In this document: in pieces, positions 312 through 27,606 of the stretch
Layout of the letters: every line of letters starts with the position of its first letter
Numbering within the stretch: position 1 is the stretch's first letter
Virus record (IMG/VR): IMGVR_UViG_2731957841_000003
Reading direction: 5' to 3' (one strand)
Length of the DNA stretch: 29,158 nt
From: a virus
Lineage: Duplodnaviria; Heunggongvirae; Uroviricota; Caudoviricetes
The notes under the pieces: model-generated
What the model was told of the DNA's origin: nothing
The model's database searches: none
Seen by the model: the letters and a program-made list of their open reading frames with translations, nothing else
Program-made: the position numbers and the translations under genes

Positions 312-3300
312 TCAATGTTCGCTTCCTGTTAACTGCCCGACAAGTGCAACCAGTTCGCTTACCTGATTTTCCAGAGTGCTGATCCGGGTGCCTGCTGTTG
401 CCATATTTTTACGTAGCGTTATGTTTTCCTCTTCCAGCGCGGTAACGCGACCATCTGTTTCACGGGCGACCTGAACAAGTAACCCCGTCACGGCGGAGTA
501 GTCAACATTAAGATAGCGAGTTTCTTCGCGTAGCTCGTTGCCGTCAACGGTCGGACCTTGCAACTCTTCACCATAATGAGTAAACGATCCCACAGCTTCA
601 GGTATCGCCTCCATTACTTCCTGTGCAATAACGCCAGCATAAGGCATTCCGTTTTCCTTGAGCGTGTAGGTGTACCCGTTCATTTTACGGATTGCTTTCG
701 TCGCGTCGCTGATAACGCGAATATCGTCTTTAAGGTCGCGGTCTGATGACTGATTCAGCGTTGTGCAATTAATAGCGCCATTTACATCAAACAACTGGCC
801 TGCTGATGTTTTTTGCGCATAAAACAGATACGCAGCAGACGTTCCAACCTCAAAAACGTTTTGTCGATCACTTGATCCCCATACTTTTGCGGCAAATGAT
901 AGTTCTGTATTACCTAAGTTCTGTAAAACAAAACGATTGCCAGTCCCTGATTGCTTTGTAAGGGTTAAATCAACAGTTGAGTTAACCTCATCCTTGTTGA
1001 TAGTGAGCGCCTGCGCTTTAGCCCCGTTAACAGCACCTGTTTTGAGTTGAACCGCGCCGTCATTACCATTTAGCAGTATCTCAGCTCCGCTAAAGAAATT
1101 TTTTAGCGACAGCATCTTACTTACGCCGACTGATGAACCCAACGCCCACGCGAGAGAATTACCGGTGCTATCAAACCCACGTACAAAGCAATCCATTTTG
1201 CTATAGTCTGACGTGCTTCCAAGGACATCAATCCGCCCTCCGCCAGATTTTAACGGGTTAGATGTGGTTAATGACCTGACAGCAAGATCGGTGGATGAAT
1301 TTAGATCGTCTACTGTTAGTAATTTCTTCCATTCCTGCATCGTTCCGTTTTCAACTGTTCTTCCCCAAAAACCGGAATTGCGGCCTCCGAACTGCACAGC
1401 ATAATTTTTACTAAATTGAACATGAATGCCGCCAAGAACCATAGAACCTGCCGGGCCGTTTGTACTGCCTGCGATTGGTCTAAATTTGTCGACGTTATCA
1501 GTATGCTGAGAGTTCCAGTCATGACCTGTTAATGTTGCGATTCCTGAGTTAGCTGTAATTAACCCAGACGCTTTAAGATTTTGCACATCAATTCTGTCGT
1601 TTGCGAAATTATATGCAATTGCGTTACTAACGCTTCCGGCATCATCATAATCGCGTTTCTGAATAAACCAGTCGCCAGCATTAGCAATGAGAGTATAAGT
1701 AGGCGTGTTAGCCGGGCGATCTGTTTCATTAAATCTTATTGCTGGGTTAGCGCTCCTTATTTGTAAAGGTTTTTCAACCGTTGATTTCAGTATCGCACTA
1801 TCTACAATTAAATTACCTTCTGAGTTAAGGTTTAGATATTTTGAAGCACCAGTTGAACCATCGTATGTAAACCTTATTGTTAATTGACCTGGCTCATTTG
1901 ATAAAGTCTCAACATACATATCAGCACCAAGACGCACAGTGCTGTCAGTTGCTAACAGTCTTGTATGGAGAATACCACTAGATGTGTATGTATTGGTCGA
2001 ATCACTATATCTATCAAGAAATAGACTGTTAAGTTGAGGGCTATTACTCCTGCCTAATCCAAGATTCGTTCTGGCACCATCAATAGTTGCCGCACCAGTG
2101 CCACCATGAGAAACATCAAGCGGTATCCATTCTTTTTGTGTATCGCTGTAACAACCCCATGATGAGGCGGTTAAACCCAGGCGCATGGATTTATCATGGT
2201 TATATAACCATGTTTCGCTATTCAATTGGTCAAGACGGTCCACTTCATTTTTGCGAGCGTGGCGTGTCCATTGCGGGCCTATTGTCGGACTCCAGCGATA
2301 GGTATAAAGCGAGCGAGTAGTCCATCCCTGAAATACACCTGTATACGCTGGTGTTCCATCTACCTGACTAATAAAACCAGTAAGATTACCTTCGCCTGAT
2401 GCAATAGACGGAAAACCTGTTGCGGAAGCAAAAATGCGCATAAAGCCAATATAACCGGATGGATCACCGGAAATATCAGGACAATTGCGCGGTGATGATC
2501 CCAAACCGATGTTAGCACCAACAATACCCTGAGCATGGTTGCGATAATTAAGTGCGTCCGCCGCAGATTTCGCCGCGTTTGTTTCACTGGATTTAGCATT
2601 AGTTTCGCTGGCTTTAGCGTTGGTTTCGCTGCTCTTTGCTGCTGCCTCGCTATTTTTCGCGTTGGTTTCTGATTTTTTGGCTGCTGTCGCGGAGTTTGCC
2701 GATGCAGTTTGTGAGTCTGCTGCCGCCTGTGCGCTGTTATCCGCATTCGTCTCAGACGTTTTTGCGGCCTTCGCGGAATTTCCTGCCGCCGTTGCCGAGG
2801 AAGCTGCACTACTGGCACTTGATGATGCGTTCGTTTCTGATGATTTCGCTGCCTCTTTTGAGGCCGCCGCATCCCGGGCTGAGGTGGCAGCTTCTGACGC
2901 TTTCGTGGTCGCGGTGGATGCAGAAGTGGCGGCTGATTGTTGTGACGCTGCCGCATTCGTTTCTGACGTTTTCGCCGCACCGGCACTGGTGGCCGCCGCG
3001 CTTTTTGAGGACTCTGCAGCGGCAGCACTTTTTGATGCTTCAGTAGCCTTTGTTGATGCCGTTCCTGCGCTGGAAGACGCTGACTGAGCCGACGTCGCGG
3101 CCTGCCCGGCTGATGTGCTGGCTGCACGTGCTGAGCCTGCAGCATCAGTCGCATGGGTTGCCGCCTCACGGGCTGATGTACCGGCATCGCTGGCTGACTT
3201 CTTCGCGGCTGCCGTGTTCTGTGCCACTGCGGACGCGTTACGCGCCACCTCTTCCACCATCAGTTCAAAGCGGCGCAGTGCCTCCGGACGGGCATCATCC

Positions 3301-14553: not shown

Positions 14554-14863
14554 TTCTTCCCGGCAGTTTTCCTTTGTAGGTTATCCACACACCCTGCGCC
14601 TCTAAAATTATGGGGCGCTTTTCCGGTGACTGCTCATCCCCTTCACATAACCCGGCAGCAACATCCAGGAAGACCTGTCTGATGCTCCTTCTGGCTGCTG
14701 CCTCATAAAACTCCAGCGCGGCACCTTCAACACGGTCCAGCGAGATGTCCAGGTCTAAAATTTCACCGTCAAAGCGTTTTTTGTCCCGTAACGCTAAAGT
14801 TACCGTAACTTTATTCTCAAAATTGCGGATCCCTTTCACAATCAGTTCATAGTTTTGAGTCAT
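14519..14863 (-). CDS. DUF1327-family lysis-cassette protein (YdfR-like)
   Basis: 114-aa ORF directly downstream of the holin (MTQNYELIVKGIRNFENKVTVTLALRDKKRFDGEI...); position and N-terminal sequence resemble YdfR-type proteins (recollection). Confidence 0.6.
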   Translation of the reverse strand: MTQNYELIVKGIRNFENKVTVTLALRDKKRFDGEILDLDISLDRVEGAALEFYEAAARRSIRQVFLDVAAGLCEGDEQSPEKRPIILEAQGVWITYKGKLPGRITGSLKTPPKW

Positions 14864-14867
14864 TGAA

Positions 14868-15083
14868 TTACTCTCCCCGTGCAGCCTTACGCTTATCTTC
14901 TTTAATCTTGAAATAAAGATTTGTCAGATACGTCAACAGGCCAAACACCAGACTACCCAGCACACCTATTGCTGCCCACTGTGAGGGCGTGACTCTATCG
15001 AGCAACTGTAAAAACCAGTAGCCAGCACTGCCTGCGGAGGTGCCATAGGCGACACCTGTTGTTAACTTATCCATGGATTTCAT
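14868..15083 (-). CDS. S: Pinholin (phage 21 S21-like class II holin) with dual-start motif MKSM
   Basis: [71 protein letters not shown], 71 aa; strong SD GAGGTGGGGG upstream; paired with a SAR endolysin. Confidence 0.85.
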
Positions 15084-15422
15084 AACCCCCACCTCGCAGA
15101 TGCGGGCGCTGTGTAATGGAAACAAAAAATGGCCACCAGCGGCCCGTAAAAAACACCCCGTCAAAAGCACCGGCATCCGCAGATGCCCTTTGCGTGGCGT
15201 TATTTGATGCGCGCCAGGTGTGGCGCAAAGAAATGAAATAAGACTTATCGAAAATTAAGGTTAATTTGATGATTTAAACCACTTCTGAAGCTTAGTAGTA
15301 TGAACATGTCCCCAGAAGGGGCCAATACTTATTATTCTTCATGGACTTTGTCCCGCGGTCTTAATCCGACGACCGCGCTACTTTTCACCCTCTCGCAAAT
15401 TGCTATCTAAAGGACGTTGTCC

Positions 15423-15455
15423 CACGAGTATTCCTGTATGCTCGTGTCTTTTTTT
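15423..15455 (+). terminator. Rho-independent terminator, plus strand
   Basis: 8-bp stem cacgagta/tatgctcgtg with 8-nt loop followed by TCTTTTTTTG. Confidence 0.6.
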
Positions 15456-15471
15456 GTCCTGAGAAAGGAAT

Positions 15472-15496
15472 AAAAAAAACCGCCAGATATGGCGGT
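15472..15496 (-). terminator. Rho-independent terminator, minus strand, downstream of the tRNA pair
   Basis: 7-bp stem accgcca/tggcggt with 4-nt loop; on the minus strand it is followed by a run of 7-8 U (plus-strand A-run 15472..15478). Confidence 0.6.
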
Positions 15497-15859
15497 TGGT
15501 CAATGCAAGGGATGAATTTTTTAATTGTTATTAAACCGAGGCGTCGGGTGCCTCCCGAAGTATTCCGTGCTGCATGGATACTGTGGTTTCCCGCTAAACC
15601 GACTCTTTAAACCACCCTCGCACTGAGGAGCGCCTCTGTGGTGCTTTTACAACACCAAAATGATGCATCACCGACCCTGCCAGGAAATACAAAATCTCCA
15701 CCGATAATGCACCATTCTGCTGCCGTAAAAAATTAGCACTGAGGCTACACCCGGCCTCAAATCATAGCCAGAGAACAGAATGCTTTTTCAAAACAACCTG
15801 CTCCCACGTAATAAAAAAATACGCCAGTGCCGTAATACAATAAGGCTTGTTTTAAATGC

Positions 15860-15934
<75 letters not shown>

Positions 15935-15937
15935 ATA

Positions 15938-16013
<76 letters not shown>

Positions 16014-16248
16014 ATTGGTTCTTCAGGGGAGCGATATCACCGAGCAAAGAAGAGTTCCCCCTCAGAACCGTTTTCGATGATACGATTTAATATTCCAATC
16101 GCAACAACACTTTGCGTCAAGCTATGTAAATTTATTTATGTATTTTTATTTTATGTGAACATTTCACCTTCACTTAAAATATACGCGACAATATATAAAC
16201 AAATTTATTTTGAAGGCAATATTAAATGTCGTTTCTTATATCACACCA

Positions 16249-16280
16249 CAATAACAACAAAACCCGCTTGATGGCGGGTT
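16249..16280 (-). terminator. Candidate tR'-like terminator about 90 nt downstream of the Q stop
   Basis: 7-bp stem aacccgc/gcgggtt with 6-nt loop; minus-strand downstream sequence is U-rich (UUUGUUGUUAUU). Confidence 0.4.
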
Positions 16281-16365
16281 CTATTAAAGTTTAATTGCGC
16301 TTGATTCGCCTCGCGATACAGCTTTGCGAAGCGTAGCAAAATTGAAGCAGTTTACGCGTAAAAAA

Positions 16366-16908
16366 TCAAGCCGTTTTTTGAGCGAATGATTCTCGCATGG
16401 GAATGTATAGCGCATACTCAGCAACGGCCAACCAATTAGCAATTCGCTTTTCGCATGTGCTAAAACACCACTCTGGGTGTGCATCATTTAGCAATTCAGC
16501 CATTTTGCGTTTGGTCATCCCCCGCCCCTCATACCGTTGCCGAAGGACGCTAATCAATCCTGGATGCTCTGCCAGCACCTCACTTATGACCCGATCAATA
16601 CATAACGCCTCTGCATCAGTACAATGCGCCAGCCAGCTCTTTTGCTTACCGTTAATCATATCCCGCAAAAAAGCCTCAAGTTCAGACTTGTTCAGACCTG
16701 CTTTTTTCATCCTCCGGAGCGCCTCGTTAATTGCCGTTTTTGTCAGCTTTTTAGAGGCCAACAACTGGTTGAACATATTCCCCGTCTTACCGCCGCCAAT
16801 ATACGACCAGCGCCCCCACATGCGCAGTTTTCCCTGAATCCAGACACTTTCCAGCGTGGTGAGACGAAGGTGTTCCCCGCTTTTGCCTGTATTTGTTGGG
16901 TAAATCAT
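16366..16908 (-). CDS. Late-gene antiterminator Q-like protein
   Basis: 180 aa from MIYPTNTGKSGEHLRLTTLESVWIQGKLRMWGRW...; ATGA overlap with the upstream DUF1364 gene; lies immediately upstream of terminator, tRNAs and lysis genes (classic Q position). Family assignment by context and partial motif recollection. Confidence 0.6.
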   Translation of the reverse strand: MIYPTNTGKSGEHLRLTTLESVWIQGKLRMWGRWSYIGGGKTGNMFNQLLASKKLTKTAINEALRRMKKAGLNKSELEAFLRDMINGKQKSWLAHCTDAEALCIDRVISEVLAEHPGLISVLRQRYEGRGMTKRKMAELLNDAHPEWCFSTCEKRIANWLAVAEYALYIPMRESFAQKTA

Positions 16909-27417: not shown

Positions 27418-27606
27418 ATGTATAAAATTACCGCCACTATTGAAAAGGAAGGTGGCACTCCTACTAACTGGACAAGATATTCAAAATCTAAACTAACGAA
27501 ATCAGAATGCGAAAAAATGCTCTCAGGTAAAAAAGAAGCAGGCGTTTCCAGAGAGCAGAAAGTAAAACTGATAAATTTTAATTGCGAGAAACTTCAGTCC
27601 TCGTGA
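27418..27606 (+). CDS. ydaC: Rac-type small protein YdaC
   Basis: 62-aa ORF MYKITATIEKEGGTPTNWTRYSKSKL... with SD GGAGG at 5-nt spacing; position between ralR and xis. Confidence 0.7.
   Translation: MYKITATIEKEGGTPTNWTRYSKSKLTKSECEKMLSGKKEAGVSREQKVKLINFNCEKLQSS

Follow-up and report, generated by a model that had tools for sequence, protein, structure and literature searches.

A spacer of 779 nt separates the phage tRNA genes from the holin gene in the 29,158-nucleotide IMG/VR virus record IMGVR_UViG_2731957841_000003 (Caudoviricetes), the whole of which we refer to as the window. Our analysis indicates that this spacer probably contains a compact, mobile, noncoding cassette (approximately positions 15203–15497) that carries its own plus-strand antisense small RNA (sRNA) gene and is insulated by a late-strand terminator. 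The architecture is already known from Shiga-toxin-type prophages; as far as sequence and profile comparisons reach, the cassette's sequence family is new and lies outside the named families. Expression of the plus-strand RNA is predicted from those same comparisons. An earlier note on the window had drawn attention to a plus-strand terminator (15423..15455) and a minus-strand terminator (15472..15496) that face each other inside the late region. It had missed the core hairpin at 15354–15385 as a first terminator, which is the most conserved part of the unit, as well as the joint travel of the minus-strand terminator with the cassette and the known convergent-sRNA layout.

Anatomy and conservation of the cassette

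The elements of the cassette are as follows.

15273–15278, plus strand: predicted −35-like hexamer TTTAAA
15296–15301, plus strand: predicted −10-like hexamer TAGTAT (TAATAT in other variants)
15307–15324, plus strand: 5′ stem-loop GUCCCC-AGAA-GGGGC (predicted fold)
15325–15342, plus strand: U-rich stretch AAUACUUAUUAUUCUUCA, unpaired in the minimum-energy and centroid folds
15343–15353, plus strand: small hairpin GGAC-UUU-GUCC, first repeat copy, 99.3% paired in alignment A1
15354–15385, plus strand: core hairpin or terminator 1, CGCGGUC-UUAAUCCGAC-GACCGCG, then CUAC-UUUU
15412–15422, plus strand: small hairpin GGAC-GUU-GUCC, second repeat copy (predicted fold)
15423–15456, plus strand: terminator 2, the plus-strand terminator of the earlier note; stem 15423–15446, then TCTTTTTTTG / UCUUUUUUUG
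15497–15468, minus strand: late-strand intrinsic terminator; stem 15497–15478, then TTTTTTATTC to 15468; outer boundary of the cassette
15342–15292, minus strand: 16-codon remnant of a late-strand mini open reading frame (ORF), starting at the CAT of the core and overlapping the predicted promoter and 5′ part of the plus-strand unit

Both facing terminators were called by the terminator scanner at essentially the coordinates first proposed. Terminator 2 has the stem CACGAGTAT-TCCTGT-ATGCTCGTG, with nine pairs (one of them G·U) and a loop of 6 nt, followed by TCTTTTTTTG to 15456. The late-strand terminator has the stem AACCGCCA-TATC-TGGCGGTT, with eight pairs (five of them G-C) and a loop of 4 nt, followed by TTTTTTATTC. 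At each, the U-run is on one side only, and both have the form of an intrinsic terminator. The gap between them, put at about 20 bp in the earlier note, corresponds to RNA 3′ ends ∼12–15 nt apart and stems 31 nt apart. Terminator-like sites are concentrated here: the 779-nt spacer contains five, versus 1.1 ± 1.1 in shuffled sequence, while the eight sites in the wider 4 kb, versus 4.6 ± 2.0, are unremarkable.

The facing hairpins are more than a chance pairing because they are conserved in homologous loci. We aligned 63 unique variants of the cassette that are 57–100% identical to the window. Terminator 2 is kept in 51 of 58 unique variants, which use at least four different stem sequences; two of its pairs are changed on both sides, and U·G pairs occur in 16 and 5 sequences. 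Because of such G·U pairs, terminator 2 is more stable on the plus strand than as its complement in 50 of the 51 variants, by a mean of 5.3 kcal/mol. The late-strand terminator is present in 61 of the 63 variants, with an invariant stem on which covariation is silent either way. Six loci lose homology precisely at 15497, where the stem of this terminator has its outer base. Thus, the late-strand terminator travels with the plus-strand unit and not with the late-strand sequence upstream of it.

The plus-strand unit ending at terminator 2, as proposed in the earlier note, is supported by compensatory changes, by G·U pairs specific to the plus strand, by a promoter-like element, and by structures upstream of the terminator. 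The element T(T/G)TAAA-17 nt-TA(G/A)TAT is kept in 61 of the 63 variants, and its spacer is invariably 17 nt long. The hexamers are nearly invariant and the spacer sequence is variable (mean non-consensus counts 0.2, 5.9, and 3.3). The predicted RNA start, near 15308, falls at the base of the 5′ stem-loop. This makes 15190, where the earlier note had the region begin, an improbable start for the unit.

Helices are maintained along the whole unit. In alignment A1, 95.1% of cells are paired, versus 40–53% in slid controls, and three pairs are changed on both sides. Its first helix, the 5′ stem-loop, is 93.6% paired, with one pair present as C-G in 17 and U-A in 12 sequences and with many U·G pairs. 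In alignment A3, 94.4% of cells are paired, versus 31–45% in slid controls, and four pairs are changed on both sides. Two of these changes fall in its first helix, the hairpin at 15412–15422 (G-C in 16 and U-A in 5 sequences; A-U in 15 and G-C in 7). The first unit contains 29 G·U cells that fit the plus strand only, versus 14 A·C cells. Similarly, the fold of 15308–15456 has a z score of −4.98 on the plus strand, versus −2.65 for the complement.

Conservation is greatest at 15330–15380 (0.95–0.98) and declines on both sides. The U-rich stretch at 15325–15342, with column conservation of 0.87–0.98, is a candidate seed or Hfq site in the structural model. The core hairpin has an invariant loop, and two of its stem pairs are switched on both sides (C-G in 21 and U-A in 14 sequences; C-G in 13 and U-A in 9). 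In variants B and C, the core hairpin is followed by T6–T8, and in variant C, the core hairpin plus T5–6 is the sole plus-strand terminator candidate, facing the late-strand terminator and a tRNA. These T-runs and the variant C layout therefore identify the core hairpin as a first terminator. In the window, which carries variant A, the hairpin is followed by CUAC-UUUU, and its stem (15354–15377) resembles an intrinsic terminator only loosely; terminator 1 is probably leaky in this variant, judging from its sequence.

The second half of the unit repeats the plan of the first. The direct repeat GGACNTTGTCCCRCG occurs at 15343–15357 and 15412–15426, with 13 of 15 positions identical and the copies 69 nt apart; none is expected by chance. 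A terminator hairpin follows each copy, and 15412–15456 repeats the order of small hairpin, terminator hairpin, and U-run. A covariance model of the first unit finds the second as its next-best match in the window (E = 0.31). The pair of terminator modules resembles a tandem duplication that has diverged.

The cassette is widespread in Escherichia coli and rare in phage collections. Homologues of a 331-nt region, from 100% down to ∼72% identity, are present in 300 of 5,426 complete E. coli genomes. The cassette occurs in two of 50,697 phage records, and an 18-mer from its core matches 85 IMG/VR contigs. Outside E. coli, the exact 18-mer is found in E. ruysiae and in 12 unrelated metagenome-assembled or other genomes, where ∼17 chance matches are expected in 596 Gb. 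These chance-level matches therefore provide no evidence of the cassette beyond Escherichia. Carriers include Rac-type and other prophages of diverse E. coli, among them dog, chicken, and human isolates and E. coli W (NC_017664.1, 1515517–1515846), and the cassette is almost never annotated in their genomes. In each of seventeen annotated loci, the late-region tRNAs lie on one side of it and the lysis genes on the other. What flanks it varies: upstream are a DUF1133 Q, other Q types, or a DNA methylase, and downstream are a pinholin, a two-holin/M15 or GH108 cassette, TerB/DUF3927, or an LT-II toxin region.

Proposed mechanism and rival explanations

In the mechanism that we propose, a sigma-70-type promoter (TTTAAA-17-TAGTAT, 15273–15301) would make the plus-strand RNA from approximately position 15308 in the lysogen. 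Given the short, displaced U-run of terminator 1, most transcripts would end at terminator 2, yielding an RNA of ∼148 nt and possibly a ∼78-nt form. The late-strand terminator would stop unmodified polymerase arriving by read-through from PR′, from the tRNA region, or from a sense RNA. In the lysogen, this stop would shield the sRNA gene from head-on transcription and also prevent read-through into the lysis genes. Once the prophage is induced, polymerase that Q has made terminator-resistant would pass the late-strand terminator and the neighboring hairpins on its way to the holin.

This last step had been suggested in the earlier note as Q-dependent antitermination. The gene order fits it; the passage itself would follow from the established biology of lambda Q, together with the outcome of the promoter scan, which found no minus-strand promoter between 15497 and the holin. 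By analogy with AgvB/AsxR and PasA, the plus-strand RNA would most likely be a trans-acting, Hfq-dependent regulator. A cis effect on the late-transcript leader is also conceivable, since the RNA is fully complementary to that leader.

Several observations weigh against this interpretation. First, the plus-strand unit is a prediction from sequence and comparison. The promoter-like element matches 8 of 12 consensus positions and falls below the scanner threshold. Terminator 1 is not called by the scanner because its loop, at 10 nt, is unusually large, and in the window its four U's lie 4 nt from the stem. Second, the compensatory changes mostly split three or four variant lineages and so represent few independent events, and the shuffle control for the pairing counts ignores the relatedness of the variants. 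The late-strand terminator, whose stem never varies, is assigned its function from form and position only. Third, a search for trans targets inside the window gave two complementary matches of at least 9 nt versus ∼6 expected, which is chance level. Finally, a late-strand ORF that is open in 46 of the 63 variants runs through the predicted promoter and the 5′ region of the unit.

That ORF underlies the first rival explanation, in which the conservation belongs to the late strand. The core and the GGAC-AAA-GUCC hairpins would form a structured leader before a 32-codon mini-ORF (start 15342, consensus MKNNKYWPPSGDMFILLSFRSGLNPQINLNFR), which would encode a leader peptide or small late protein ahead of the holin, or else the toxin of a type-I-like toxin/antisense pair; the plus-strand hairpins would then be secondary. 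We think this unlikely, but it accounts for some of the data. The mini-ORF is open for exactly 32 codons in 46 of the 63 variants (at full length, for example, in loci L005, L010, and L012), and an ATG-to-GTG change preserves its start codon. Its pooled ratio of nonsynonymous to synonymous polymorphism (pN/pS) is 0.41, versus 0.48–0.93 in the other five frames, and its third codon positions are slightly more variable (mean pairwise differences 4.7/3.8/5.9).

However, the mini-ORF is broken in 17 of the 63 variants, and in the window a 1-nt deletion cuts it to 16 codons. Its periodicity is weak, and one frame on the opposite strand scores 0.48. It has no good Shine–Dalgarno sequence, the GGGA lying within the invariant hairpin, and the strongest conservation (15343–15385) falls outside it. 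Moreover, its invariant codons GGT TTA AAT and ATA YTA, which show no synonymous change, coincide with the predicted −35 and −10 hexamers, whereas the intervening codons change nonsynonymously. Four representative full-length peptides are absent from a collection of ∼15 billion proteins, and two that were scanned against Pfam and PHROGs gave no significant match. The G·U bias and the U-runs also favor the plus strand. In type I toxin–antitoxin systems, a small, usually hydrophobic toxin ORF has its own mRNA, the 5′ end of which is overlapped by a constitutive antisense RNA. Here the predicted sRNA would similarly cover the start codon and leader of the mini-ORF, but the ORF is broken in 27% of variants, its peptide is not hydrophobic, and the scanner found no promoter for it between 15467 and 15386. 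We retain the mini-ORF as a lesser rival or an additional layer rather than as the explanation.

A second alternative retains the antisense RNA and changes its role. The cassette would be a self-insulated cis-antisense switch for lysis instead of the usual trans-acting sRNA. In the lysogen, the plus-strand RNA would pair with late-strand read-through across the structured leader and the mini-ORF start, and this pairing would either silence leaky holin and endolysin expression or neutralize a small toxic late peptide in the manner of a type I system. After induction, Q-modified polymerase would flood the locus and overcome the antisense RNA. We consider this, too, unlikely; if true, the cassette would amount to a lysis-safety module that is new and widespread and moves with holins of different families.

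A third possibility, for which we see only a small chance, is that the hairpins are punctuation only: a pair of back-to-back terminators at a moron insertion point, the plus-strand member being the relic 3′ end of a lost antisense gene, as with morons of nmpC/lc type. The locus would then no longer make a functional plus-strand RNA. Lambdoid Q–S regions do carry morons in both orientations; in K-12 DLP12, nmpC lies antisense between quuD and essD, and several of our loci have extra genes (TerB, DUF3927) inserted beside the cassette. It also fits that no promoter reaches the scanner threshold. A relic would decay, yet the ∼150 nt upstream of terminator 2 are the most conserved noncoding sequence of the spacer. 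Such a reading also has to contend with maintained helices, a promoter-like element of fixed spacing, and plus-specific G·U pairs across variants that diverge to 57% identity. In no locus among the 63 variants does a plus-strand protein gene end at terminator 2.

Fourth, the plus-strand unit could be a very diverged anti-sRNA of the AgvB/AsxR/EcOnc03 kind, ∼55 nt long, with a promoter just upstream of terminator 2 and a variable 5′ seed. Position, orientation, and convergent partner are as for AgvB/AsxR. The region from the core to terminator 2 is variable, like the 5′ ends of the anti-sRNAs, and by eye a CATGNNNTTGNCC motif resembling the family's 3′ part occurs before the terminator 2 stem, in the core, in unit 2 of variant B, and in AsxR. 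This explanation is nevertheless quite improbable. The Rfam AgvB/AsxR models give no match at E up to 10, whereas the same models score 88–97 bits on the Sakai controls; the reciprocal covariance model R1 misses AgvB, AsxR, and EcOnc03, as does blastn. A separate short unit with its start near 15400 keeps a low probability, but no promoter-like hexamers are evident at 15386–15415, and the strongest conservation lies upstream, outside the 55-nt unit.

Finally, the idea that the unit is an mRNA for the 36-amino-acid (aa) peptide MNMSPEGANTYYSSWTLSRGLNPTTALLFTLSQIAI can be dismissed as effectively refuted by comparison. The earlier note had listed a 37-codon plus-strand ORF at 15301..15414; such an ORF exists in the window, at 15300..15410 and with 36 aa plus a stop, but it is not conserved. 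Its coding ALTERNATIVES was rejected: the ATG has become ATC, ATA, or ATT in 21 of the 63 variants, 1-nt indels in the 5′ stem-loop cut the frame to 21 or 11 aa in 30 variants, and only five keep 36 aa. The ATG (15300–15302) overlaps the −10-like hexamer upstream of the predicted RNA start and has no Shine–Dalgarno sequence. Pfam and PHROG scans of the peptide gave no match, although the 36-aa peptide or a 41-aa version is called in a few genome annotations. The comparison thus bears out the fallback of the earlier note, that the unit may be an sRNA instead of a small gene.

Prophage context and the late-strand partner

The surroundings of the cassette, in the direction of late transcription, are as follows.

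upstream of Q, minus strand: DUF1367 and DUF1364
16366–16908, minus strand: Q of the DUF1133 type
16368–16340, minus strand: PR′-like promoter TTGATT-17-TTCAAT, directly 3′ of the Q stop
16286–16255, minus strand: strong tR′-like terminator, ∼80 nt past the PR′-like promoter
16013–15938, minus strand: tRNA-Thr
15934–15860, minus strand: tRNA-Gly
15082–15860: tRNA-to-holin spacer, 779 nt
15646–15859: tRNA-proximal stretch of the spacer
15498–15720, minus strand: putative body of a possible sense RNA ending at the late-strand terminator
15498–15645: variable stretch of the spacer
∼15203–15497: cassette, ∼295 bp
15117–15209: "holin leader" module
14868–15083, minus strand: S21-like pinholin EssD, start at 15083
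beyond the pinholin, minus strand: YdfR, signal-arrest-release (SAR) lysozyme, Rz/Rz1, and trkG, in that order
27424–27602, minus strand: RalA antitoxin sRNA (Rfam, 225 bits)

The window is a Rac-type lambdoid prophage of E. coli, an identity that the presence of the RalA sRNA confirms. At gathering thresholds, Rfam finds in the window only RalA and the two tRNAs. The tRNA-to-holin spacer is 100% identical in strain 19KM1766N and in four other genomes. The promoter and terminator after Q are the expected PR′–tR′ unit, and the late-strand order of Q, PR′, tR′, and tRNAs therefore places the facing terminators inside the late operon. The full minus-strand order (Q, PR′-like promoter, tR′-like terminator, tRNAs, cassette, pinholin) gives the cassette the position of the lambdoid moron site, which stx occupies in Stx phages and "morons" occupy in other phages. 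The interval 16368–16250 on the minus strand is itself a candidate short constitutive transcript in the style of lambda 6S RNA, StxS, or IsrK, and weak Rfam matches to STnc370, isrK, and OrzO-P occur around it.

By blastn, the spacer is a mosaic of four segments: 15117–15209, ∼15203–15497, 15498–15645, and 15646–15859. The holin leader (15117–15209) is 82–89% conserved and occurs directly upstream of unrelated holin families; in loci L012 and L015, TerB/DUF3927 separates it from the cassette. It contains two late-strand terminator-like hairpins (15187–15172 and 15144–15131) that precede the start codon of the holin by only 50–100 nt. The Prokaryotic Genome Annotation Pipeline (PGAP) calls a plus-strand ORF of 41 aa over this module (15116–15241); the ORF is seen on more than 1,000 contigs and is probably spurious. 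A third late-strand terminator-like hairpin (15760–15739) lies ∼100 nt past tRNA-Gly. It is followed on the same strand by a long, nearly perfect hairpin (15644–15731), the source of chance matches to microRNA precursors, which would form the 5′ part of the putative sense RNA. The spacer is present twice in phage SerU-LTIIb (L002, KU052038; an LT-IIb enterotoxin prophage), at 787–1224 and 2498–3241: one copy is full and has the cassette, and the other is partial and lies beside a duplicated tRNA/holin segment.

The late-strand RNA that would end at the late-strand terminator may be remotely related to STnc100/PasD/EcOnc27, as judged from profile matches. Rfam STnc100 (RF02076) gives a full-length match at 15468–15663 on the minus strand that scores 22 bits, where the gathering threshold is 47 (E = 0.0068 for a search of 341 nt). 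A PasD/EcOnc27 covariance model scores 9.9 bits in the window (E = 1.3), and in nine homologous loci its best match is at the syntenic position, with 10–22 bits. A shared CGGGAGGCACCCG hairpin motif lies at 15545–15568. The body of this RNA folds with a z score of −2.8, and its sequence varies between loci. These scores do not establish membership in the family; the controls reach 129–208 bits, and PasD itself scores 38–41 bits. In FDAARGOS_1262 (L016), a bona fide STnc100 (129 bits; 1117–1319, minus strand) stands in series with the cassette (1501–1709). The two kinds of element can thus coexist in one late region; no AgvB/AsxR partner was detected beside this STnc100.

Comparison with known phage RNAs

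Searches with family models and with sequence returned nothing significant for the plus-strand unit. Permissive Rfam scans of 14800–16500, 15260–15470, and 15440–15780 gave no plus-strand match and, on the minus strand, only the subthreshold STnc100-type match. The AgvB/AsxR families (RF02702, RF02703), defined by a conserved ∼42-nt 3′ region, GUAUCUCAUGC..UUGCCCGAACCCAYUCGGGC-UUUU, gave no match at E up to 10 in 15260–15470 (a 211-nt search with lax filters) or in 14800–16500. In Sakai, our positive control, the AgvB/AsxR models score 57–97 bits (88–97 for the controls in the test) and STnc100 scores 146–208 bits. Likewise, blastn and covariance model R1 found no similarity to PasA/PasC/PasD or AgvB/AsxR/EcOnc03 and no match in the Q–S regions of Sakai Sp3, Sp4, Sp5, Sp9, Sp10, and Sp11. 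The same held for enteropathogenic E. coli (EPEC) PP2, PP4, and PP5 and for K-12 DLP12 (IpeX/nmpC region); K-12 shares only the start of essD. Against PasA/PasC, blastn at word size 7 gave chance matches only, so that the unit lies outside that family by sequence. No paper in a searchable full-text library contains the core sequence, searched in both orientations as DNA and in the sense orientation as RNA. A tRNA-like reading of the core was rejected, ARAGORN finding only the two tRNAs. The best non-self match of the plus-strand sRNA model is in Sakai Sp5 (L021, 6083–6175, minus strand; 12.6 bits, E = 0.24) and is not significant. It comprises an antisense-oriented 5′ hairpin, a U-rich stretch, and a terminator with U7, in a ∼135-nt gap downstream of an esterase gene disrupted by IS629.

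Known sRNAs at this position indicate what an expressed cassette could mean. Prophage sRNAs at the moron position are among the most abundant Hfq ligands in enterohaemorrhagic E. coli (EHEC) and EPEC and rewire core-genome regulation. AgvB counteracts GcvB and AsxR counteracts FnrS, and the Pas sRNAs have target sets of their own. If the plus-strand RNA is expressed, the class would no longer be confined to the Stx-type phages that pathogens carry: it would take in Rac-type and other prophages of ∼5% of complete E. coli genomes, with commensal and animal strains among them as well as laboratory-relevant ones such as E. coli W. The cassette would also contribute a sequence family overlooked by Rfam 15 and by genome annotation. 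It has its own facing terminator and recombines as a unit before unrelated holins, which suggests that such sRNA genes are built to include insulation from late-operon read-through. The locus also exemplifies a terminator that late transcripts have to override on their way to the lysis genes.

The closest parallel is provided by the convergent sRNA genes downstream of the Q-antiterminated PR′ in Sakai Sp3, 4, 5, 9, 10, 11, 15, and 17 (Tree et al. 2014, PMC4104026). There the antisense AgvB, AsxR, and EcOnc03 are the most abundant Hfq ligands, and the sense partner is of the STnc100/EcOnc27 type (PMC4104026). Our Rfam searches reproduce the convergent pair in Sp5, Sp9, and Sp10, where STnc100 on the plus strand abuts AgvB/AsxR on the minus strand, to within 1–2 nt in Sp5 and Sp10: STnc100 at 2423–2628 and AsxR at 2630–2682 in L021, STnc100 at 2728–2920 and AgvB at 2921–2982 in L023, and the same pair in Sp9 (L022). 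Like the cassette, these pairs lie downstream of Q/PR′/tR′ and the phage tRNAs and upstream of the lysis genes. They have two Rho-independent terminators a few nucleotides apart and an antisense partner that is a separate small gene, and they move between prophages as a unit. Unlike them, the putative pair in the window lies directly before the holin leader, with no esterase gene between, and it has no detectable sequence or profile similarity to the Sakai pairs. The AgvB/AsxR RNAs are 51–60 nt long and have a variable 5′ seed of 14–18 nt and a conserved 3′ part, whereas the antisense RNA predicted here is ∼148 or ∼78 nt and comes from two tandem terminator modules with a conserved middle.

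The second parallel is with PasA/PasC of EPEC E2348/69, which are Hfq-dependent, antisense to late genes, and located beside the holin/lysozyme operon (Pearl Mizrahi et al. 2021, PMC8550237; Zhu, Shabalina & Storz 2026 preprint, 10.64898/2026.05.13.724894). PasA has a major 85-nt and a minor 236-nt form that arise from two successive terminators (PMC8550237), and the STnc100-related PasD is the sense-strand partner upstream of PasA/PasC (PMC8550237; 10.64898/2026.05.13.724894). The cassette shares the antisense orientation beside a holin/lysozyme operon and the two tandem terminator modules (15354–15385 and 15423–15456), from which two forms are predicted. The Pas sRNAs are concentrated in EPEC and EHEC, whereas the cassette is spread over Rac-type and other prophages in a diverse set of E. 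coli. Expression and Hfq binding have been shown for the Pas sRNAs; the sRNA of the window is a prediction.

More distant comparisons are with the cis-antisense RNAs of temperate phages, such as lambda OOP against cII and P22 sar against ant. Each is, as predicted here, a short RNA of the phage that has a promoter and an intrinsic terminator to itself and is fully complementary to the transcript of an opposing phage operon. OOP and sar overlap a defined coding target, whereas the plus-strand RNA would overlap a noncoding leader or a dubious mini-ORF ∼230 nt before the holin. Finally, the short PR′–tR′ transcripts, such as 6S RNA, StxS of Stx phages (Sy et al. 2020, PMC7547250), and IsrK of Gifsy-1 (PMC4825925), exemplify constitutive transcription that an intrinsic terminator halts in the lysogen and that continues past it once polymerase is modified by Q, as we propose for the late strand here. 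The PR′–tR′ unit of the window lies 750 nt upstream on the late strand; the cassette would be a separate antisense gene with a second, downstream late-strand terminator.

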